Origin: a virus
Taxonomy: Duplodnaviria > Caudoviricetes
IMG/VR virus record: IMGVR_UViG_3300012952_003952
Coordinates: 128,001 to 192,000 of that record
Direction: 5' to 3' (one strand)
DNA length: 64,000 bases
The position numbers were made by a program, and so were the translations under genes. Shown here piece by piece: positions 11,110 to 64,000 of the stretch (positions are counted from its first letter, which is position 1; each line of letters starts with the position of its first letter). The notes below the pieces were generated by a model that saw only the letters and a program-made list of their open reading frames with translations, was not told where the DNA came from and made no database searches.

Positions 11110-13020
11110 ATGAGCAAGAAATTTACATTGGAGCAGTTAACCGAGGGTATTCGTCAACGTAACGTTGGATCGGGTAACAGTAGGTTAATTGAAAAGTGGT
11201 CTCGCACCGGTCTTCTCAGAGGACTTGAGGGCACTACTCGCGAAAACATGGCGGCACTGCTTGAAAATCAGGCATCCCAGGTTCTTCGTGAGGCTAACTC
11301 AATTTCCACCGGTGGTGGAAACTTAACTTCTTCTGGCGACCTCCGCGGTTTCCAGAACATAGCATTCCCAATCGTCCGTAGAGTTTTCGGCGGCTTGGTA
11401 GCTAATGAGCTTGTATCCGTACAGCCCATGAGCCTTCCATCAGGCCTCCTTTTCTATCTCGATTACACGTATGGAACTAATGTCGGTGGTGCAAATGCAC
11501 CTAAGGGTTCAACTTACGTCTCAGGAACTTCTATCTATAATGCACCTACAGGAAAGGGCGTTCGCTCCGGTTCTCTTGGAATCGGTGGACAGTACAACCT
11601 TGCAGGTTCTGGTTATTCCAGAGTCCACAAAGTTGCTACTAGTATCACTCTCCTCGCTTCTGGCGCGTTCATGGGAGACTCTACGTTCTCCGCAGGTGGT
11701 TCAGGCGCAAGACAAACTCAGCGTATGGTTGCTACTGGTTCTGACGGCAAGCTTCTACAGTTTGACGAGCAGATCTGTAGATTAATTGAAGATAACCCCA
11801 ACGCTGCTGGCGCTGGTGTTTTCAAAGCATACGTTGTTGATTTTGCTTCAGGCAAATTCGCAGATGCCGACACTAGTATGGTCAAAGACTTCGCTCTTAC
11901 ACCAGACGCAGGTGCTAACCCCACAATCCTCTCAAACACTCTGAAGTCAGAAGACGTTCAGGTCAGTGGTGATAACGTCCTTAACGTACGTCGTCTTAAC
12001 CAGTTAGGTAAGTGGAACAATGGTCAGTTCACCGCAGATCCTCTCGTAAAAGCTGGCGATTCTAACGCTGCGCTTCTATTGATTGTTTCTGGTGGTGGTG
12101 GCACTACTGATGCAACCGCTGAGCAGACTTATGACGTTGGTTATGTTCTTAGCCCAAGCTTGAATGCTGGATCTGATGGTGATACCCTTACGATTCCAAC
12201 TTTCGAGTCTAACTTTGCAACTACACCTTCTCCAGAGATCCCAGAGATCGATATCAAGGTAGAATCTATTGCGGTCACCGCGGTAACTCGTAAGCTTCGT
12301 GCTCGCTGGTCACCAGAACTCGCACAGGACCTAAACGCTTACCACAGCCTTGACGCTGAGGTTGAGCTTACTCAGATCCTTTCCGAGCAGATCGCACTTG
12401 AGCTTGACAGAGAAATTCTTAACGACCTTCTCACCCAAGCCAAGACCAACTTCTACTGGTCACGTGCACCTGGTAAGTTCATGAACAAGAGAAGTGGTAC
12501 TCTTATCACTCCCGGAGGCGCTGGTACTATTGGACCAAGCTTCACCGGTACTGTTCGCGAATGGTATGAGACGCTCGTTGAGACTATTATTGATGTTGCT
12601 AACGAAATTCACAGACTCACACTCCGTGGTTCAGCTAACTTCATCGTAGTTTCTCCAGACATCGCAACCATCCTCGAAGCATCCGTCCTCTACCGCCCAA
12701 GCTACAGCTTAGATGGTGATGGACAGGTCGGTACTCCAATGAGTATCGGAGCTGAGAAGGTTGGTACTCTAAGCAACCGCTTCACAGTCTACAAAGATCC
12801 TTACTTCCCACGGAACAAGGTACTTGTCGGATTCAAGGGTGGTAGCTACTTAGAGACTGGTTATGTCTATGCTCCATACGTACCGCTGATCGTTACGCCT
12901 ACTATCTTCGCTCCTGAGGACTTCACCCCAAGAAAGGGTGTTATGACTCGCTACGGCAAGAAGATGGTTCGTTCCGACTTCTACGGTACCGTTACTGTCG
13001 CAGACATGAACGTTATCTAA
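11110..13020 (+). CDS. major capsid protein, copy 1 (T4 gp23-like)
   Basis: LLENQ, FPIVRRVF, VSVQPMSLPSGLLFYL, RKLRARWSPELAQDL, EIL/LDREIL, YAPYVPL and GVMTRYG; AAGGAG RBS. Confidence 0.95.
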   Translation: MSKKFTLEQLTEGIRQRNVGSGNSRLIEKWSRTGLLRGLEGTTRENMAALLENQASQVLREANSISTGGGNLTSSGDLRGFQNIAFPIVRRVFGGLVANELVSVQPMSLPSGLLFYLDYTYGTNVGGANAPKGSTYVSGTSIYNAPTGKGVRSGSLGIGGQYNLAGSGYSRVHKVATSITLLASGAFMGDSTFSAGGSGARQTQRMVATGSDGKLLQFDEQICRLIEDNPNAAGAGVFKAYVVDFASGKFADADTSMVKDFALTPDAGANPTILSNTLKSEDVQVSGDNVLNVRRLNQLGKWNNGQFTADPLVKAGDSNAALLLIVSGGGGTTDATAEQTYDVGYVLSPSLNAGSDGDTLTIPTFESNFATTPSPEIPEIDIKVESIAVTAVTRKLRARWSPELAQDLNAYHSLDAEVELTQILSEQIALELDREILNDLLTQAKTNFYWSRAPGKFMNKRSGTLITPGGAGTIGPSFTGTVREWYETLVETIIDVANEIHRLTLRGSANFIVVSPDIATILEASVLYRPSYSLDGDGQVGTPMSIGAEKVGTLSNRFTVYKDPYFPRNKVLVGFKGGSYLETGYVYAPYVPLIVTPTIFAPEDFTPRKGVMTRYGKKMVRSDFYGTVTVADMNVI

Positions 13021-13081: not shown

Positions 13082-14965
13082 ATGTCTAAAAAATTTACAT
13101 TAGAACAACTAACTGAAGGAATTCGCCAACGTAATGTTGGTAAAGGTAATTCTAAGTTAGTTGAAAAGTGGTCTCGTACTGGACTTCTTCGAGGTCTTGA
13201 AGGTACCACTCGCGAGAACATGGCTTCTCTTCTAGAAAACCAGGCGTCTCAAGTTCTCCGCGAAGCTAACTCAATCTCTACCGGTGGAGGAAACTTAACT
13301 TCTTCTGGTGATTTAAGAGGCTTTCAAAACATTGCGTTTCCAATCGTCCGTAGAGTCTTTGGTGGATTAGTTGCTAACGAACTAGTTTCAGTTCAGCCTA
13401 TGAGCCTTCCTTCTGGTCTGCTCTTCTATCTAGACTATACTTACGGCACAAACGTTGGCGGTAATGATGATGCTGGTGATGAAGCCACTTATCCTTCCGG
13501 AAGCTCTATTTATAACGCCCCAACTGGAAAGGGCATTCGCTCTGGCTCGTTAGGCATAGGTGGACAGTACAACCTTGCAGGTTCTGGTTACTCTAGAGTT
13601 CGCCAAGTTGCCAATACGATTACGATCATGGCTTCCGGCGCATACAACGGAGGATCAACTTTTACTGCTGCTAAGAGATTGGCTGCTACCGGTTCAGATG
13701 GTAAACTTCTTCAGTTTGATCCACAGATCTGTAGGTTGATTGAAGATAATCCCAACGCTGCTGGCGCTGGTGTTTTCACCGCAATGTTCATTGACTTAAA
13801 CTCTACGCAGTTTAGCAATGGTGATCTTAGTATGGTTAAGGATTTCTCTCTTATTCCTTCTGGAACAGGTGGTCTTAACTTCAATGAGATAGCTCAAACG
13901 CTGAAAGATGAAGATATTCAGATTTCTGGAAAGAGAGTTGTTAACGTACGTCGTCTTAATCAATTAGGAAAGTGGGATGGAAGTAACTTCACGCATGATC
14001 CTTTAGTTAAGGCTGGCGATTCTAACGCAGCTATATTGATGATCGTTTCTGGTACTCGAATCATGGCAGATGGTGCAGACATAAACTATGTCTTAGCTCC
14101 AGATTTAAATGCTGGATCTGATGGTGACACTCTTACCATTCCAACTTTTGAATCTGACTTCGCGGCTTCTCCATCTCCTGAAATTCCAGAGATTGATATT
14201 AAAGTTGAGTCAATCGCAGTTACTGCAGTTACTAGAAAGCTTCGTGCTCGCTGGTCACCAGAACTTGCTCAAGACTTGAATGCATATCACTCTTTAGATG
14301 CAGAAGTAGAGCTTACACAGATCCTATCTGAGCAGATCGCTCTTGAACTTGACCGTGAGATCCTTAATGATCTACTTACCCAAGCTAAGACTAACTTCTA
14401 TTGGTCAAGAGCTCCCGGTAAGTTCATGAACAAGAGAAGCGGAACCCTCATTACTCCTGGTGGTGCTGGAACTATTGGACCAAGCTTCACAGGAACAGTC
14501 AGAGAGTGGTACGAGACCCTTGTCGAGACCATTATCGATGTTGCTAATGAGATCCACCGCCTGACTCTTAGAGGTTCAGCTAACTTCATCGTAGTGTCTC
14601 CAGACATTGCAACTATCCTTGAAGCCTCAGTTCTTTATCGTCCAAGCTACAGCTTAGACGGTGATGGACAAGTCGGCAGCCCGATGAGCATTGGCGCTGA
14701 GAACGTAGGTACTCTTTCAAACCGTTTCACGGTTTATAAAGACCCATACTTCCCGCGCAACAAGGTTCTCGTCGGATTCAAGGGCGGAAGTTATCTTGAG
14801 ACTGGATATGTATACGCACCTTATGTACCACTTATTGTCACTCCAACAATCTTCGCACCAGAAGACTTCACACCTCGTAAGGGCGTGATGACTCGATATG
14901 GTAAGAAGATGGTTCGTTCCGACTTCTATGGTACAGTTACTGTCGCAGACATGAACGTTATTTAA
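13082..14965 (+). CDS. major capsid protein, copy 2 (T4 gp23-like)
   Basis: Same gp23 motifs as copy 1; GGAG RBS; different central region. Confidence 0.95.
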   Translation: MSKKFTLEQLTEGIRQRNVGKGNSKLVEKWSRTGLLRGLEGTTRENMASLLENQASQVLREANSISTGGGNLTSSGDLRGFQNIAFPIVRRVFGGLVANELVSVQPMSLPSGLLFYLDYTYGTNVGGNDDAGDEATYPSGSSIYNAPTGKGIRSGSLGIGGQYNLAGSGYSRVRQVANTITIMASGAYNGGSTFTAAKRLAATGSDGKLLQFDPQICRLIEDNPNAAGAGVFTAMFIDLNSTQFSNGDLSMVKDFSLIPSGTGGLNFNEIAQTLKDEDIQISGKRVVNVRRLNQLGKWDGSNFTHDPLVKAGDSNAAILMIVSGTRIMADGADINYVLAPDLNAGSDGDTLTIPTFESDFAASPSPEIPEIDIKVESIAVTAVTRKLRARWSPELAQDLNAYHSLDAEVELTQILSEQIALELDREILNDLLTQAKTNFYWSRAPGKFMNKRSGTLITPGGAGTIGPSFTGTVREWYETLVETIIDVANEIHRLTLRGSANFIVVSPDIATILEASVLYRPSYSLDGDGQVGSPMSIGAENVGTLSNRFTVYKDPYFPRNKVLVGFKGGSYLETGYVYAPYVPLIVTPTIFAPEDFTPRKGVMTRYGKKMVRSDFYGTVTVADMNVI

Positions 14966-48574: not shown

Positions 48575-48961
48575 ATGGCTTATTCTGATAAAGTTATTGA
48601 CCACTTTGAGGATCCACAAAATATGGGATCTCTAGATAAAAAAGACCCATCTGTAGGAACTGGATTAGTCGGTGCCCCAGCATGTGGCGACGTAATGAGA
48701 CTTCAGTTAAAGATTAGCGATAGTGGAATTATAGAAGAAGCCAAATTTAAAACTTTCGGCTGCGGATCTGCTATTGCTTCTAGCTCTCTCATAACAACTA
48801 TGGTTAAGGGAAAAACTGTTGAAGATGCTGAAAAAATTTCTAATGCTGATGTCGCCAAAGAGTTGTCTCTCCCTCCAGTAAAAATCCACTGTTCAGTATT
48901 GGCAGAAGACGCTATTAAAGCCGCTATTAAAAATTATAGAGAAAAAAATGACGAAAGATGA
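48575..48961 (+). CDS. iscU: Fe-S cluster scaffold IscU
   Basis: MAYSDKVIDHF, GAPACGDVMRLQ, FKTFGCGSAIASSS and LPPVKIHCSVLAEDAIKAA. Confidence 0.95.
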   Translation: MAYSDKVIDHFEDPQNMGSLDKKDPSVGTGLVGAPACGDVMRLQLKISDSGIIEEAKFKTFGCGSAIASSSLITTMVKGKTVEDAEKISNADVAKELSLPPVKIHCSVLAEDAIKAAIKNYREKNDER

Positions 48962-49220
48962 AATACAGAATTTTATAGATGAAGAAATTAATCCACTCCT
49001 CCAAGACCATGGCGGATTTATTTCTATTTACGATTTCGATCAAAGTAGTAAATCTTTAAAGATACAAATGGGTGGAGGCTGCCAAGGTTGCGCAGGTTCT
49101 AAAATGACTCTGAGAAGAGGGGTCGAGAATCATCTTAGAGAAAATTTTCCAGACATGGGAGAAATCGAAGATGTTACCGATCACCTAGCTGGAGAAAACC
49201 CATATTATGAGAAGGAGTAA
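48948..49220 (+). CDS. NifU/Nfu C-terminal-domain Fe-S carrier
   Basis: INPLLQDHGG and GGCQGC (CxxC), then TLRRGVE. Confidence 0.85.
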   Translation: MTKDEIQNFIDEEINPLLQDHGGFISIYDFDQSSKSLKIQMGGGCQGCAGSKMTLRRGVENHLRENFPDMGEIEDVTDHLAGENPYYEKE

Positions 49221-49223
49221 AAA

Positions 49224-49550
49224 TTGCCTATAACAATTACAGAAAAAGCAAAAGAAAAAATTTCTTCTCTCCTTGCGCAACGCCAAACTCCTGACCACTA
49301 TTTAAAAATTGGGCTTCAAGGCGGAGGCTGTTCAGGATTCAAATATAATTATGATTTTGTTCTAGAGCCAGAAGACAAAGACAAAGTTTTTCAGTTTGAA
49401 AACATTAAAATTTGCATAGACAAAAAATCTTATTTATTTCTCAATGGGGTAGAAATAGATTATGAAGAAGACCTTTTTAAATCTGGTCTTGTATTCAATG
49501 CTCCCTCTGCGAAGAGAACGTGTGGGTGCGGAGAATCGGTAGCTTTTTAG
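49224..49550 (+). CDS. iscA: A-type Fe-S carrier (IscA/SufA/ErpA family)
   Basis: ITITEKA, GGCSGFKY and CGCGES; TTG start with AAGGAG RBS. Confidence 0.9.
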   Translation: MPITITEKAKEKISSLLAQRQTPDHYLKIGLQGGGCSGFKYNYDFVLEPEDKDKVFQFENIKICIDKKSYLFLNGVEIDYEEDLFKSGLVFNAPSAKRTCGCGESVAF

Positions 49551-49558
49551 GAAAAAAT

Positions 49559-50161
49559 ATGAAATGGACTACAAATATATCGCCGTTAGTTAAAGAGTTT
49601 GAACTTAGAAAAAACCCAATAATAATACGCGTAAATAAATTCGACGAAGAATCTGCTAGAAAATTCAGCCAAGAAATAGCGCAAGCCCACAACACTGGGC
49701 AAAAGATAGTTCCAGTCGTGATAGATTCATATGGCGGCCAAGTTTACAGTTTGATGGCTATGATAAGCGACATACAGAATTCAGAAATACCAGTTGCTAC
49801 GATTGTAGAAGGAAAAGCCATGTCTTGTGGAGCAATACTTTTTTCTTTTGGTGCCGAAGGGTATCGTTTTATGGACAAAAATGCAACAGTGATGATACAC
49901 GATGTTTCTTCTATGGACATGGGAAAAGTGGAAGAGTTAAAAGCAGGAGCAGCTGAAGCAGACCGACTAAACAGCATAGTTTATACAATGATGGCTCAAA
50001 ACTGTGGCAAGAAAGACGATTATTTTATGGAAATAGTCTACACGAAGAAACACGCTGATTGGTTTCTAGATGCTAACGAATGTAAGACTCATAATCTAGC
50101 TAATCACTTAAGAGTCCCAAAGCTCAACATTAAAATTGATGTTGACATAGATTTTGAGTAG
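49559..50161 (+). CDS. ClpP-like serine protease
   Basis: IDSYGG, AMSCGA (Ser), MIHD (His), DWFLDANE; ATG at 49559. Confidence 0.8.
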   Translation: MKWTTNISPLVKEFELRKNPIIIRVNKFDEESARKFSQEIAQAHNTGQKIVPVVIDSYGGQVYSLMAMISDIQNSEIPVATIVEGKAMSCGAILFSFGAEGYRFMDKNATVMIHDVSSMDMGKVEELKAGAAEADRLNSIVYTMMAQNCGKKDDYFMEIVYTKKHADWFLDANECKTHNLANHLRVPKLNIKIDVDIDFE

Positions 50162-52020: not shown

Positions 52021-52333
52021 TGGTGCCGACTGGAATGAATATTCAAGGTTGGTTTTAAACCAACTAGAAACCTTGGCGAATAGTATCCAGTCTTTAAATT
52101 CTGAGATTCAGGAGCTTAAGCAAGAGATTGCTAGAATGAGAGAGCGGGAAGACCGGGTTGACGAGCTTCGAGCCTGGAAAGAGAAAGTAGACGAAGTCGC
52201 TTCCCCAACTCAGCTCGGCACAGCCTTGAAAGAAGTCGACGAACTTAAACAATTTAAGACAAAAGCGATTACCATATTTGCAGTAGTTCAATTTGCGATG
52301 GGCGCCATAGTTTTTGCGATGAGATTTATGTAA
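52013..52333 (+). CDS. coiled-coil protein with C-terminal transmembrane helix
   Basis: GAGG RBS; heptad region, then AITIFAVVQFAMGAIVFAM. Confidence 0.6.
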   Translation: MSSGADWNEYSRLVLNQLETLANSIQSLNSEIQELKQEIARMREREDRVDELRAWKEKVDEVASPTQLGTALKEVDELKQFKTKAITIFAVVQFAMGAIVFAMRFM

Positions 52334-52356
52334 ATTAGCTTTTTTTGTGTTATATT
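52328..52356 (+). promoter_or_regulatory. sigma70-like extended -10 promoter for glycosylase pair
   Basis: ATGTAA-N17-TATATT with TG at the extended position; ATG lies 7 nt after the -10 box. Confidence 0.55.
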
Positions 52357-52362
52357 TTTAAC

Positions 52363-52788
52363 ATGAAGAAATGGAATCCACCAAAATCACCATGGAATCT
52401 TGTGCAAGAGCCATATTTCGGTGATGAATGGAAAATTCTTATATGCTGTCTGTTATTGAATCTTACGACTCACAAGCAAGTTAGAAAAATTTTAGACGAG
52501 TTATTTGAGAAATACCCTAATCCAAAATCTATGTGTTTGGCTGAAGAAGAAGATTTAAAAGATTTGCTTAGTTCTCTTGGTTTAGTTAACAAGAGAGCAA
52601 AAACGCTTATTCGGTTCTCTCATGAATACCTTACCAAAGATTGGAAGACGGCTAAAGATTTGTACGGCTGCGGAAAATATGCTGATGATGCATGGCATAT
52701 TTTTTGTGTCGGAGATTGGCAAAGCGTTGAGCCAAAAGATCACGCATTAAACTATTATCATGACTTTTTGAGGGAGAATTATGCCTGA
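52363..52788 (+). CDS. MBD4-like HhH mismatch (G:T/G:U) DNA glycosylase, catalytic domain only
   Basis: KKWNPPKSPWNLVQE, WKILICCLLLNLT, LGLVNKRAKTL and LYGCGKYADDAWHIFCVGDWQSVEPKDHALNYYHDFL. Confidence 0.85.
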   Translation: MKKWNPPKSPWNLVQEPYFGDEWKILICCLLLNLTTHKQVRKILDELFEKYPNPKSMCLAEEEDLKDLLSSLGLVNKRAKTLIRFSHEYLTKDWKTAKDLYGCGKYADDAWHIFCVGDWQSVEPKDHALNYYHDFLRENYA

Positions 52789-53587
52789 AGGCCCAGAATG
52801 CAGAAGAATTGCAGAGTCGCTTGCAAAAGAAGTTTCTAATAAGACCATCGTGGGTATAGACATCCTCGGAGGCAGGTATACTAAGAAAGAACCATCAGGT
52901 TTATCAGATTTAATTTCTGATCTACCGATTGCCGTTGCTGGGGTAGGTGTTCATGGAAAGTTTATTTATTGGATTCTTTCTAAAGAACATTCGCTCTGGA
53001 ACACTCTTGGAATGAGTGGACATTGGTCTGGTGAAGAGCAAAAACATTCTAGAATAAAAATCAGGTTTTCTGATAAAACGCATGTTTACTTTAATGACAC
53101 TAGAAATTTTGGAACAATTAAATTAGTAAAGGGAAAATCAGAGCTTATAAAAAAGCTTAAATCTCTTGGTCCAGATATGCTCTCAGAAGACGTTGATAAT
53201 ATAACATTTTTGTCTGCGCTTAGAAAGAAAAATAAACACAATATATGCAAAGTTCTTATGGACCAAAGCGTCATCGCTGGCGTAGGAAATTATGTAAAAG
53301 CTGAAGCATTGTGGTTAGCTAAAATTAATCCAGCTTCTAACGTTCAAGATTTAGAAGACTACCAGTTAATAGATCTTAATGAGTCTATTAAAAGTGTTTT
53401 AAGAGCTTCTTACGAAAGCGGAGGAGCTACTATTAAGTCATATAAAAACTTTGATGGTGAAATTGGGGATTACTCTTCTCGGTTTCTTGTTTATAATCAG
53501 AAAACAGACCCCCACGGAAACGAAGTGGTAAAGTTTCAAACCCCAGACGGTAGAACAACTCACTGGGTGCCAGAAGTTCAAATTTAG
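52781..53587 (+). CDS. Fpg/Nei-family DNA glycosylase
   Basis: N-terminal MPEGPE, HGKFIY, LGMSG, FNDTRNFG, H2TH LMDQSVIAGVGNYVKAEALW. Confidence 0.9.
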   Translation: MPEGPECRRIAESLAKEVSNKTIVGIDILGGRYTKKEPSGLSDLISDLPIAVAGVGVHGKFIYWILSKEHSLWNTLGMSGHWSGEEQKHSRIKIRFSDKTHVYFNDTRNFGTIKLVKGKSELIKKLKSLGPDMLSEDVDNITFLSALRKKNKHNICKVLMDQSVIAGVGNYVKAEALWLAKINPASNVQDLEDYQLIDLNESIKSVLRASYESGGATIKSYKNFDGEIGDYSSRFLVYNQKTDPHGNEVVKFQTPDGRTTHWVPEVQI

Positions 53588-59735: not shown

Positions 59736-60584
59736 ATGAATTCGAAATACAAAAATTTAAATCAAGCCTTTGTAGAAGAGTTAGTCGATTGCCACAAGAA
59801 CGGCGTAGAAGTTGAATCTCGTGGCTTCGTACAAAAAGAAAAACTTTTCTCTTCTTTTATAATTCAAGATCCCACCGATTTGCGAATTGATGTCCCAGCT
59901 AGAAAGTTCAATGAAGACTATGCAATTTTAGAATGGCTTTGGTACCTAAACTCTGACTCTAGAATAAAGACTATCGGTAAATTTGCAGATATTTGGAACA
60001 AGATTGCAGATTCGCAAGGGGTCGTTGAGTCTAACTATGGCTCTTATTTAAAGCCGTGCTGGTATGACTTAGTAGATGAGCTTATATCTGATAGAGATAC
60101 CCGTAGAGCAACTTGCGTAATTAATCAGCCATACCATAGGTTCAAAAACCCAAAAGACTATCCTTGTACGCACTATATTCACTTTTTTATCAGAGAAGAA
60201 GCTCTTCACATGGGCGTATATATGCGGTCTAATGATGCAGTTTTTGGTTTTTGTAACGACGTTTTCACCTTTGCGTTGTTTCAACAGCTTATGCTAAATG
60301 AACTAAACGCTCGCGGTGGTAAACTTTCATTAGGAACATACTACCACTCGGCTGGAAGCTTTCACGTATACGATAGACATTATTCTATGATGGAAAAGAT
60401 AGCTGAAAATTATTTTGTGAAAGCTAGAAGAAATGGGTATCCAACCGACTTAAAGAAAATAGTGCTAGATCCCAATTTAACCTGGCCGAAAATGGAAAAC
60501 TACACGTCTTTTTTCAATGAAGACTTAGACAAAGAAGAAGTTTTAAATACAATTAAAAAGACTAAGGAAATTATATTCAAATGA
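59736..60584 (+). CDS. thymidylate-synthase-fold enzyme, dCMP hydroxymethylase-like (T4 gp42 type)
   Basis: DTRRA, DYPCT catalytic Cys, MRSNDAVFGFCNDV with Asp at the base-specificity position, YYHSAGSFHVY. Confidence 0.8.
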   Translation: MNSKYKNLNQAFVEELVDCHKNGVEVESRGFVQKEKLFSSFIIQDPTDLRIDVPARKFNEDYAILEWLWYLNSDSRIKTIGKFADIWNKIADSQGVVESNYGSYLKPCWYDLVDELISDRDTRRATCVINQPYHRFKNPKDYPCTHYIHFFIREEALHMGVYMRSNDAVFGFCNDVFTFALFQQLMLNELNARGGKLSLGTYYHSAGSFHVYDRHYSMMEKIAENYFVKARRNGYPTDLKKIVLDPNLTWPKMENYTSFFNEDLDKEEVLNTIKKTKEIIFK

Positions 60585-60862
60585 ATATTCTAAAAAAAGC
60601 AAATGAGATAATCAATGAAAGATCTGAAGAAAAAGAGCGCCAATACGGCCCAATGGGTGAAGGCCTTGAAAGAGCTGCGATGATTGCTTCTGGAATAACG
60701 GGTAAAGATTTAACAGCAGACGATATTTTTGCATGCCTCATCGGCCTTAAATTTTCTAGACATTCGTATAACTACAAAGAAGATAATTTTCTAGATGCTG
60801 CTGCTTATTTGGGAGCGTGGAACAATTACCAACAGGAGAAATTAAAAAGTGAAGATAAGTAA
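60581..60862 (+). CDS. DUF6378-like small all-alpha protein (possible nucleotide pyrophosphatase)
   Basis: RQYG ... LIGLKFSR ... DNFLDAAAY pattern; ATGA overlap. Confidence 0.55.
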   Translation: MNILKKANEIINERSEEKERQYGPMGEGLERAAMIASGITGKDLTADDIFACLIGLKFSRHSYNYKEDNFLDAAAYLGAWNNYQQEKLKSEDK

Positions 60863-61283
60863 AGTAAGGGCAGTTAAAACACCGCAAAGGGGGACTCCAG
60901 AGTCAGCTGGAATTGATTTTTTCGTGCCAGAGGGAATGATAGCTAAATTATCGCCTGGAGACTCTTGCTTGATGCCAAGCGGAATCAAAGCCAATGTTCC
61001 ATCTGGCCATGCATTAATAGCGTTTAATAAGAGTGGAGTAGCAGTTAAGAAATCTCTTCACGTTGGGGCATGCGTCGTAGACGAAGATTATCAGGGCGAA
61101 ATTCACCTTAATTTAATCAATGTTGGCTCGAGCGTTGCAGAGATAAAATCTGGAGAAAAAATAGTCCAATTTATTTTACTTCCTGTTTTTTATGACACAA
61201 TTGAAGAAGTAGAATTGGAAAACCTTTACGAAGACGAAACTGTTCGAGGTGAAGGTGGTTTTGGTAGCACGGGAGTAGAATAG
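60849..61283 (+). CDS. dut: trimeric dUTPase
   Basis: AGIDF, KSGVA, VVDEDYQGEI, IVQFIL and RGEGGFGSTG. Confidence 0.92.
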   Translation: MKISKVRAVKTPQRGTPESAGIDFFVPEGMIAKLSPGDSCLMPSGIKANVPSGHALIAFNKSGVAVKKSLHVGACVVDEDYQGEIHLNLINVGSSVAEIKSGEKIVQFILLPVFYDTIEEVELENLYEDETVRGEGGFGSTGVE

Positions 61284-62353
61284 TGGATTATTTTGTAGAT
61301 TATGAAATTCCTAAAAACTTTAAGATAGGGATCGACGGACTAGAGAGAAACATTCCGGCTAGAAAACACAGCCACAATGCTGCCTGGGTTCATCTCTACA
61401 AAAATATGCTACAATCTGCTGGCTGGAGTGATGTACACGTCTTAGGCAATCATGACACTTACGAAGGTTATGATGCTATGATATTTTATCCAGGAATTGC
61501 TTACGCTGGAACGATTAACTTCTTTTTTGGAGTTGACGACAATGTAGTTAGAAGGTTCTCCAGAATTCAAGATTTTGAAGGTCCGACTTTTATTTTAAAT
61601 CATGAAATGCCGCTCATTGGAGCGACGATCAGCAAAAGACTGCACAATAAATCGACAAGCTCGAAAATTGGAAATCTTAAACTGAGCTTATTAGATGATA
61701 TTTGCAAATCTACTCGCAGAATAGATTATGTTGAAAGATCAACAAAGCTTTGCTTTGGAGACAGTCATTGTTTTTCTGCTTATCTTCCAGGGTATTCTGT
61801 TTGCCGAAATGACGGGCTCACTCTTTTTTCTACGCTTCGCGATGGAGTAAAAGAGACCATTGAAGAAAAATATGGAGCTTCTGTTGAAAATTTGACTCAT
61901 CTTACTTTTTATATGGGCAATATTGATATAAGGCACCACTTGATGCGCCAAGAAAATCCATATGAAAAAATCCACGCTATGACTATCGAGCTTTCACACC
62001 AGCTTAAAAAACTTGATATACCAAACATTGAACTAGTTCACGCACTGCCTATCGAAAATATTTCTAGAAAACTTCCTAAAACTGGATATTATAAGAAGAC
62101 TCCATATTTCGGAACTTGGGAAGAAAGAACAAAATTAGTCAATACATTCAATGCCGCTGTAGATAGAATTTGTATAGAAAACAAATGGAATTCTTTCCAC
62201 TGGCCAGCTAAATTTTTAAATGATTCTGGTGAATTAGACTTTGAATATATGGAGCGCCCTAAAAGCGTACACTTAAGCCCGCTTTCTTATAGGTGGGACC
62301 TTTTTGAAAATCAATTAAATTTATTGCATAGTAATCAAAACAACGGAGAATAA
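61283..62353 (+). CDS. two-domain unknown: glucosyltransferase-N-like plus SGNH-like
   Basis: C-terminal FGDSH, GNIDIRHH and SVHL (SGNH-type blocks); N-terminal KIGI..YDAMI..INFFFG recalls T4 beta-glucosyltransferase. Confidence 0.5.
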   Translation: MDYFVDYEIPKNFKIGIDGLERNIPARKHSHNAAWVHLYKNMLQSAGWSDVHVLGNHDTYEGYDAMIFYPGIAYAGTINFFFGVDDNVVRRFSRIQDFEGPTFILNHEMPLIGATISKRLHNKSTSSKIGNLKLSLLDDICKSTRRIDYVERSTKLCFGDSHCFSAYLPGYSVCRNDGLTLFSTLRDGVKETIEEKYGASVENLTHLTFYMGNIDIRHHLMRQENPYEKIHAMTIELSHQLKKLDIPNIELVHALPIENISRKLPKTGYYKKTPYFGTWEERTKLVNTFNAAVDRICIENKWNSFHWPAKFLNDSGELDFEYMERPKSVHLSPLSYRWDLFENQLNLLHSNQNNGE

Positions 62354-62354
62354 T

Positions 62355-63545
62355 ATGCCAAAAAACAAGTCAATTAGAGTTGCAATCGTCGGAGTCGGAA
62401 ATTGTGCTAATTCCTTTTACCAGGGCTTAACGTATTATGCGGGGTACACCGCTGGACAAGAGCGCGATGGAGTGATGAAGAGCCGAATCGGAGGATATTC
62501 GGTAGCTGATCTCGAGGTTGTAGCAGCATTCGACGTTGATAAACGAAAAGTTGGAAAGTGTTTTAGAGAAGCTATGCTAGCCAAACCAAACTGTACTCCA
62601 AGCTATGAGGCAAATGTTCCTGACGGTCCCGTAGTTCAAATGGGCCCAATCATGGACGGTGTTCCAAATTTGATGGCTAATTATTCTGATGAAGAAGCGT
62701 TTAGAACTGCTGATTTAGAACCAGTAGATGTGGCTCAAGTGTTATTAGACCGCAAAGTGGATATTCTTATCAACTATCTTCCTGTTGGTTCTCAGAAGGC
62801 CACCGAGTGGTATGCAGAACAGTGCCTTAAGACTGGAGTTTCTCTTCTTAACTGTATTCCAGTTTTTATTGCTTCTAATCCAGTTTGGGAGCAAAAGTTT
62901 ATTGATGCTGGAATTCCACTCGTTGGCGATGACATGAAATCTCAATTTGGGGCCTCTATTATGTCTCAAATGCTTCAAGAACTAGCTTTTGCTCGAGGTC
63001 TAAATGTTAAAGCTCACATTCAGCGAAATGTCGGTGGCAATACTGATTTCTTGAACATGGTAGATCAATCTCGGCTGAAATACAAGAAAGTTTCAAAGGA
63101 GAATGTAATTCGATCTCAACACGTAATTCGTGGTGTAGACCCCGAAGAATCTTTCCTCCATGCTGGGCCGTCTGAATATATTCGCTACTATGGAGATAAC
63201 AAGGTCGCAAACTTCCGAATTGAAATGGAGGGATTCCTTGGTGCCCCAGTTATTTTAGACGCGCAGCTTTCTGTAATTGACTCTCCTAACTCTGGAGGCG
63301 TTGTAATCGACGCCGCTCGGTATCTAAAAGTCGCCAGAGAGATGGGCATTGTAGGGGCTCTCAGAGGTCCGTCTGCTTTTACTCAGAAGACTCCGCCTCA
63401 ACAGCTTATGTTTAGTGAAACTCTTTATGAATGCGACGCTCTTTCTGATAGGAGGCTCACTCGATTTACTAAGCGCCAAACAGAAAAATACAGCGCTGAA
63501 GAGCTTTACCTATCGTGTCCAGCAGGAAACAAGGAAGTAGATTAA
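62355..63545 (+). CDS. ino1: myo-inositol-1-phosphate synthase
   Basis: VAIVGVGNCA, AAFDVDKRKVG, NYLPVGS, NCIPVFIAS, GDDMKSQFGAS, NVGGNTDFLNM, GPSEYI and DSPNSGGVVIDA. Confidence 0.95.
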   Translation: MPKNKSIRVAIVGVGNCANSFYQGLTYYAGYTAGQERDGVMKSRIGGYSVADLEVVAAFDVDKRKVGKCFREAMLAKPNCTPSYEANVPDGPVVQMGPIMDGVPNLMANYSDEEAFRTADLEPVDVAQVLLDRKVDILINYLPVGSQKATEWYAEQCLKTGVSLLNCIPVFIASNPVWEQKFIDAGIPLVGDDMKSQFGASIMSQMLQELAFARGLNVKAHIQRNVGGNTDFLNMVDQSRLKYKKVSKENVIRSQHVIRGVDPEESFLHAGPSEYIRYYGDNKVANFRIEMEGFLGAPVILDAQLSVIDSPNSGGVVIDAARYLKVAREMGIVGALRGPSAFTQKTPPQQLMFSETLYECDALSDRRLTRFTKRQTEKYSAEELYLSCPAGNKEVD

Positions 63546-64000
63546 TGGCTAAATTGCATGAGCAAAAAGGAAAACTTTTTAATCCAGACTCTGAAGATTT
63601 TGAAGAGTGTGTAATAAAGTTTAACGGAAGGAATGGGTTTTGGTACAGACCAGGCACTTTTGATTTAAATTCTATAAGAGAGTGCAGAGACAATTATAGC
63701 GATATTGACACTTGCGGGAAAACAGTTTTAGATTTAGGAGCCAACATTGGAGGATTTTCAAGAATGGCTCTAGAAAAAGGAGCTAAAAAAGTAATAGCTT
63801 TAGAGCCATGCCCTCATAATTTTCAAATTTTAGAGATCAATGCCCCAAATGCAGAATGTCTAAATGCTGCAGTTTGCGAAAGCAAGGTAAAAGAAGTAGT
63901 TTTTCATTATGCTGGATCTAAAAGAAACTCAGTGTCGTCTTCTACTCTTAAAAGAAGAAATGCTTCTGGAGTATCTATTGCAGTACCAGGATTATCATTT
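63545..64000 (+). CDS. FkbM-like SAM-dependent methyltransferase (3' end outside window; absent from ORF track)
   Basis: TAATG overlap with ino1; open to the window end: MAKLHEQK...KTVLDLGANIGGFSRMALEKGAKKVIALEPCPHNFQIL...LNAAV. Confidence 0.8.
   Translation, partial: MAKLHEQKGKLFNPDSEDFEECVIKFNGRNGFWYRPGTFDLNSIRECRDNYSDIDTCGKTVLDLGANIGGFSRMALEKGAKKVIALEPCPHNFQILEINAPNAECLNAAVCESKVKEVVFHYAGSKRNSVSSSTLKRRNASGVSIAVPGLSF

Follow-up and report, generated by a model that had tools for sequence, protein, structure and literature searches.

A stand-alone MBD4-family DNA glycosylase in a marine jumbo phage predicted to carry modified cytosine

The locus and its genomic setting

The stretch of DNA analysed here, referred to as the window, comprises 64 kb (bases 128,001-192,000) of a 241,978-bp single-contig virus record. 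The record derives from an uncultured marine jumbo phage, has a CheckV completeness of 57%, and includes T4-like head and tail genes as well as genes for DnaE, RecA, a helicase and a ribonucleotide reductase. On the forward strand, positions 52363-52788 encode a stand-alone HhH-GPD DNA glycosylase of 141 amino acids, which sequence search, fold model and residue alignment assign to the MBD4 family. The open reading frame starts with ATG, its stop overlaps the next gene, and one contig from the probable source run spans the gene without any difference, while contigs from an independent 2024 study span parts of it with one difference each. The open reading frame is a real gene. A promoter-like motif on the same strand, TGTAAA ... 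TG-n-TATATT (52329-52356), was found by eye and is absent from the consensus scan list. It ends 6 bases 5' of the ATG, a proximity that suggests a leaderless transcript. Similar motifs were seen by eye in front of the gene in several relatives, and one in contig L087 also precedes an unrelated gene that takes the place of the MBD4-like gene.

The adjoining gene (52781-53587, forward strand), whose start overlaps the MBD4-like stop by 8 bases, encodes an Fpg/Nei-family glycosylase/AP lyase. Its closest solved structure is mimivirus Nei1 (3a45, E 3e-46, compared with 8e-26 for bacterial Fpg), and it is the probable partner that would cut the abasic site left by the MBD4-like protein. Further downstream, 7 kb 3' of the MBD4-like gene and beyond DnaE, lies a thymidylate-synthase (TS) homologue (59736-60584, forward strand) closest to MilA and T4 gp42. 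The combination of Asp at ThyA position 177, an acidic residue at 143 and a conserved Asp169 is the signature of dCMP hydroxymethylases (PMC13326640). With Asp at all three positions the TS homologue carries this signature, and it is the predicted source of modified cytosine in this phage. It is followed by a modification module that begins with DUF6378, dUTPase, a phrog_17781-like protein, inositol-1-phosphate synthase and an FkbM methyltransferase (60581-64000, forward strand) and continues past the window end with HAD, a PF18723 protein, a C5 cytosine methyltransferase, an epimerase, thymidine kinase and dCMP deaminase. The phage thus probably builds its DNA with modified cytosine. Dinucleotide and 4-mer biases showed no clear methylation footprint. 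The MBD4-like gene itself lies outside this operon. The first-pass annotation had taken it as independent support for cytosine modification; that support is moderate and indirect, and the direct sequence evidence is the dCMP-hydroxymethylase-type enzyme.

The C5 methyltransferase within the module (G000:C1:194134-195312; L083:4135-5310), in a genome predicted to carry hydroxymethylcytosine (hmC), has its best cultured matches in Pseudoalteromonas phage XG4 and the methylases of TIM5-like cyanophages. Neither an ATP ligase nor an Nfo-type AP endonuclease was found in the 57%-complete record. Elsewhere, the phage carries two tandem, closely similar major capsid protein genes (window 11110-13020 and 13082-14965; phrog_138 was checked for the first), IscU, NfuA-like, IscA and ClpP-like genes 3' of ribonucleotide reductase (window 48575-50161), and ~33 kb of glycosyltransferase and nucleotide-sugar genes (G000:C1:43397-76174). 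An MKITKRQL-like motif starts many short genes at 9-17 kb and 230-232 kb of the genome.

Family membership and active site

In agreement with the first-pass annotation, which had described a stand-alone glycosylase collinear with the catalytic domain of eukaryotic MBD4, the mouse and human MBD4 glycosylase domains align gap-free with phage residues 2-140 (E 2.4e-44). The next-best families in the same search are MIG (2.4e-5) and EndoIII (1.6e-3). The AlphaFold model (pLDDT 95.5) superimposes on 16 MBD4 chains with TM scores of 0.93-0.95, an rmsd of ~1 Å and ~50% identity, compared with TM scores of 0.67 for MIG, ~0.63 for MutY and at most 0.68 for Nth, MutY and MIG taken together; the nth model scores the protein at 40 bits, with a cut-off of 211.7. 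Proteins of the Nth/MutY/MIG type have a two-domain HhH fold of more than 200 residues with an Fe-S cluster, whereas the phage protein consists of one short HhH domain, collinear with the catalytic domain of MBD4. The lack of an Fe-S motif and of a methyl-binding domain, likewise noted from the sequence alone, was borne out: a CX6CX2CX5C motif was not found in the 141 residues, the open reading frame is too short for a methyl-CpG-binding domain, and the upstream gene is unrelated to one. Y106 stands in place of the lyase Lys of the HhH motif, which together with the missing Fe-S cluster marks a monofunctional enzyme. A search among longer proteins for fused forms, in itself weak evidence, returned only eukaryotic MBD4s and one 288-residue protein without the catalytic C-terminus.

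The tree places the jumbo-phage protein in a viral clade of 17 rows, supported at 97/87, and not within animal MBD4, so that sequence, fold and tree all separate it from ordinary Nth, MutY and MIG. A single viral clade was not rejected by the AU test (p-AU 0.72), which does not establish one; the deep branches of these trees, which have no Nth/MutY root, are not settled, and the trees do not give a direction of transfer. By fold, pocket and catalytic residue the protein is a member of the MBD4 glycosylase family, outside the animal subfamily.

Phage positions correspond to human MBD4 numbers minus 434. The human residues L447, V448, Q449, L466, N467, L506, L508, R512, Y540, D543, D560 and H561 are all retained, and the pocket that reads T or U is intact (L13, V14, Q15, L32 and Y106 for L447, V448, Q449, L466 and Y540). 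The catalytic Asp560 corresponds to D126 in the motif PKDHAL. The first-pass annotation was right that this residue is kept but placed it in GKYADD, which contains Y540 and D543. Asp560 is present in 184 of 185 phage and metagenome sequences, and Q449, N467, T469, R512, Y540 and D560 are essentially invariant in the same set (n = 185). MBD4 excises T and 5hmU opposite G using residues that the phage family retains (PMC3479182, PMC3458566).

Three positions, overlooked in the first-pass annotation, are changed: L34, H37 and A128 stand for human R468, G471 and K562. All 93 animal sequences have Arg or Lys at 468 and none of the phage or metagenome sequences does; across the phage sequences this position is Leu, Gln, Met or Cys, position 471 is Arg or His, and position 562 is mostly Ala, in place of the Gly and Lys of animal MBD4. 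The phage proteins hence have neither the R/K finger at 468, nor Gly471 with Lys562, nor the N-terminal methyl-CpG-binding domain of the animal subfamily. The human MBD4 variants R468L and R468Q have no or almost no activity left (PMC12073362), and the mouse variant K536A, equivalent to human K562A, is 5-10 times slower (PMC3458566). In the mouse enzyme this Lys contacts the hydroxyl of hydroxymethyluracil (hmU) and the Gly is 4 Å from the C5 methyl (PMC3458566). In MBD4 the opposite G is read mainly via the backbone carbonyls of 468 and 506 (PMC3479182). With these three substitutions T:G activity of the phage enzyme is not to be assumed, and since Leu stands here in place of the arginine finger on which T:G excision by human MBD4 depends, the substrate can be inferred but not read off the alignment. 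R468 is also missing from some plant-type MBD4 homologues, and therefore a wedge of another kind is feasible.

Purifying selection on the phage genes is strong, with dN/dS values of ~0.03-0.07 for the four gene pairs with estimable dS and dN values of 0.04-0.2 against a dS of 0.85 to saturated. We take the protein to be probably active, with its wedge and C5 edge remodelled. A basic side chain at 471 may make up for the lost charges, and G471H/R together with K562A at the C5 edge would either offset the loss of R468 or accommodate 5-substituents.

Carriers, neighbours and gene loss

Short relatives of the protein number at least 370 in metagenomes, viral contigs gave 117 matches, and the best non-phage relatives are eukaryotic MBD4/MBD4L proteins. 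A first scan of 185,579 prokaryote genomes (GTDB) gave none, and a looser pattern scan gave nine contigs of metagenome-assembled genomes (MAGs), which are mostly phage-like. A single MBD4-like gene, of the S-TIM54-like subfamily, was seen in an apparently bacterial neighbourhood, that of Ca. Actinomarina (L172:4986-5375). A plasmid search gave no match. Viral structure predictions gave a single strong match, the HhH-GPD protein with MBD4 fold of Clostera anastomosis granulovirus A (BFVD U5KBB0; TM 0.91, 34% identity). To our knowledge, eukaryotic MBD4 has almost no bacterial or archaeal counterpart. A search of full texts available without subscription returned no paper on an MBD4-like gene in a phage.

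Of 50,697 cultured-phage records, 14 contain the family, and these represent nine phages: eight of the Xp12 group and the cyanophage S-TIM54. All nine have a dCMP-type (Asp177) TS homologue, Asp177 having been read directly in Xp12, Donnerlittchen and S-TIM54 and assigned in the others by 78-99% identity to the Xp12 enzyme; the background of such TS types is at least ~815 cultured records (~1.6%), not all of them checked residue by residue. In Xp12, 5mC replaces all C (bioRxiv 10.1101/2024.12.05.627091). Its MBD4-like gene lies directly 5' of the pyrophosphatase, TS, deaminase and DHFR genes, and nine related contigs show the same order, with the MBD4-like gene directly before the modification genes. 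S-TIM54 has, besides its Asp177 TS, a C5 methyltransferase, one of the best cultured matches to that of the jumbo phage. The S-TIM54 gene annotated as ThyA (L161:20398-21240) may be a dCMP methylase, because it has Asp at 177 and ThyX is encoded in the same genome. In four contigs of an unrelated phage (L186-type) the MBD4-like gene directly precedes the same DUF6378-phrog17781-MIPS (inositol) module as that of the jumbo phage.

An Asp177-type TS homologue is likewise present in 11 of 11 metagenomic viral records that are at least 70% complete and carry the gene, a count that is not independent, as most of these records form one clade whose carriers and non-carriers all have the Asp177 TS; the association is strengthened by the carriers from independent, unrelated phage groups. 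The homologues are of three kinds, namely gp42-like, a second glycosyltransferase-linked type, and a kinase-fused miniature. Three genomes (G023, G020 and G025) that had appeared to be carriers without a TS were found to encode the last kind. In this arrangement (L150:14511-15488, L145:751-1722 and L158-L160) the TS after DnaE is replaced by a fusion of a nucleotide kinase with a miniature TS-like domain; these domains have Asp177, and one has Asn at 169, a 5-hydroxy-dCMP signature. In three phage-like contigs from MAGs (L170, L173 and L174) a distant MBD4-like gene was seen by eye near QueD/FolE/QueE-like (7-deazaguanine) genes. A proposed association of His or Asn at 471 with the inositol module held in the nearest clade only: a His-type relative has no such module beside its TS, and a module-linked distant protein has Tyr/Ile at that position.

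The link between the gene and modified cytosine is one-way: carriers have an Asp177 TS, but the converse fails. A complete 293-kb relative (G002), whose DnaE is 92% identical and which shares the operon, carries an unrelated gene at this site and lacks the MBD4-like gene throughout its genome, and nearly all cultured phages with a gp42-type enzyme are without it. The expected co-occurrence with cytosine-modification genes therefore holds for every adequately complete carrier, all of which have an N177D-type homologue, but not for G002 and most gp42 phages. In two contigs the gene is an internally deleted remnant. The slot before Nei is a swappable cassette (L087:5837-6664, L108:5020-5841, L107:6564-6643 and L124), which in relatives holds a sulfotransferase-like or glycosyltransferase-like gene (by eye) or an MBD4-like remnant, or is empty. 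Nei is kept where the MBD4-like gene is lost, and the MBD4-like gene is tightly coupled to Nei in many relatives. The MBD4-like gene is accessory and dispensable.

At synonymous transition sites, the carrier was richer in C/G than its non-carrier sister in five of six pairs (0.56, 0.56, 0.52, 0.87 and 0.89), while the sixth pair, with an MBD4-like remnant, gave 0.40. Control pairs scatter between 0.39 and 0.61, a range into which three of the five positive pairs fall. Transversions contribute to both of the large effects, and only one genome is proven to be without the gene; as a repair footprint the C/G excess is weak and only suggestive.

Possible functions and comparison with known systems

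Given the observed family, fold, pocket, purifying selection and gene context, the protein is probably an optional repair enzyme that acts on deaminated modified cytosine where it faces G. As a predicted active, monofunctional glycosylase it would act as an anti-mutator for a genome with 5-substituted cytosine. Judging by the active-site residues of its TS homologue, the phage would make hm-dCMP and probably decorate hmC further, and it also has the C5 methyltransferase. Deamination of the modified cytosine would then yield hmU, decorated hmU, T or U opposite G. The flipped base would enter the pocket that reads the uracil edge (V14, Q15 and Y106), D126 would cut the glycosidic bond, the abasic site would be opened by the co-transcribed Nei lyase or a host AP endonuclease, and polymerase and ligase would put the modified C back. 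Repair of deaminated modified cytosines, as originally proposed, is thus favoured by family and co-occurrence, and weakened by the gene being optional and outside the operon, at a distance of 7 kb, and by the Leu in place of the arginine finger. The R468 and K562 changes that cripple the mammalian enzyme both occur in the phage family, and the distant subfamily near 7-deazaguanine genes likewise speaks against repair of modified cytosine.

Two other functions are each improbable, to a similar degree. The protein could be a generic U:G glycosylase in place of uracil-DNA glycosylase (UDG), forming with Nei a base-excision kit for a long-lived marine virion that is unrelated to modification. No UDG-family gene was found in this genome or in four others, the coupling to Nei is tight and the gene stands outside the operon, and plant MBD4L prefers U over T (PMC6728418). 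However, this leaves unexplained that cultured carriers are found only among phages with a dCMP-type TS and that in Xp12 and L186-type phages the gene lies within modification clusters; if every C carries a substituent, deamination cannot yield plain U:G, and Nei is retained when the MBD4-like gene is lost. A shift in specificity has about the same low probability. Without the G-sensing Arg the enzyme might remove 5-substituted uracil whatever its partner, for instance hmU wrongly incorporated opposite A when hm-dCTP pools deaminate, or solely a bulky decorated form. The three family-wide changes are indeed all at the wedge and the C5 edge, where Gly and Lys make the contacts described above, and a dCMP deaminase adjoins the hydroxymethylase module. 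Against this, the backbone carbonyls that mainly read the opposite G are kept, a partner-blind enzyme would destroy normal T:A pairs in the 5mC phage Xp12, and the same changes are found with different modification chemistries. That the protein has no repair role for the phage, and instead binds lesions with little or no activity or serves as a weapon in the breakdown of host DNA, is very unlikely, since in spite of the two crippling substitutions and a promoter-like motif that suggests early expression, the catalytic Asp, Tyr and Gln do not vary, purifying selection is strong and the pocket suits uracil-type bases, which are rare in host DNA.

Beyond repair of deaminated modified cytosine as such, it is conceivable, though rather doubtful, that C-modifying phages maintain their own MBD4 subfamily, with the wedge and C5 edge rebuilt (Arg468 lost, Arg/His471, Ala562), that excises deaminated sugar- or inositol-bearing cytosine derivatives handled by no known glycosylase, and that this viral pool is also the source of eukaryotic MBD4, an origin with which the tree is compatible but which it does not show. 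New in this analysis are the correct placement of the catalytic Asp, the change at three residues, the test cases among cultured phages and the finding that co-occurrence runs one way. One answer to how C-replacing phages cope with cytosine deamination is offered by an MBD4 family restricted to phages that modify C; we know of no such gene in T4-like phages. Xp12 gp61 gives the repair idea a test case in a cultured phage whose DNA is known to contain 5mC, and the natural R468L, K562A and G471R variants test the current model of T:G sensing by MBD4. A small stand-alone T:G/hmU:G glycosylase could also serve as a sequencing reagent. That the family occurs in viruses and eukaryotes but scarcely in prokaryotes is relevant to where MBD4 came from.

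Of the known systems, the mammalian MBD4/MED1 glycosylase domain (PDB 1NGN, 4E9E, 4DK9, 4EW0 and 6VJW) is the closest, with a gap-free alignment, ~50% identity and a TM score of 0.94. Both are one-domain HhH proteins without Fe-S and have the same pocket, the L506/L508 wedge and D560, whereas the phage-encoded protein is without the methyl-binding domain and N-terminal extension and has Leu, His and Ala for R468, G471 and K562. AtMBD4L and the plant and algal MBD4-like proteins also have no methyl-binding domain (PMC6728418). Some of them are, like the phage protein, without R468, and a few algal proteins, in clusters with Phaeocystis and Prasinoderma members, show the phage-type Arg471/Ala562 pattern; however, these proteins have long N-terminal extensions, mostly keep Gly471 and fall on separate tree branches. 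MIG (PDB 1KEA; viral example APSV1 gp40, near a DNA methyltransferase) is a T:G glycosylase that shares a mobile element with a gene for cytosine methylation, and thus follows the same logic of a glycosylase alongside a cytosine-modification gene, but it is an Nth-like two-domain protein of ~220 residues with an Fe-S cluster and matches the phage protein only at E 2e-5 and TM 0.67. Xp12 gp61 (YP_010738946.1) and S-TIM54 UYE97365.1 are uncharacterised MBD4-family genes of cultured phages with a dCMP-type TS, and belong to distant, long-branch subfamilies relative to the jumbo-phage protein. Unlike the jumbo-phage gene, Xp12 gp61 has Trp at 471, keeps Lys562 and lies inside the modification cluster.
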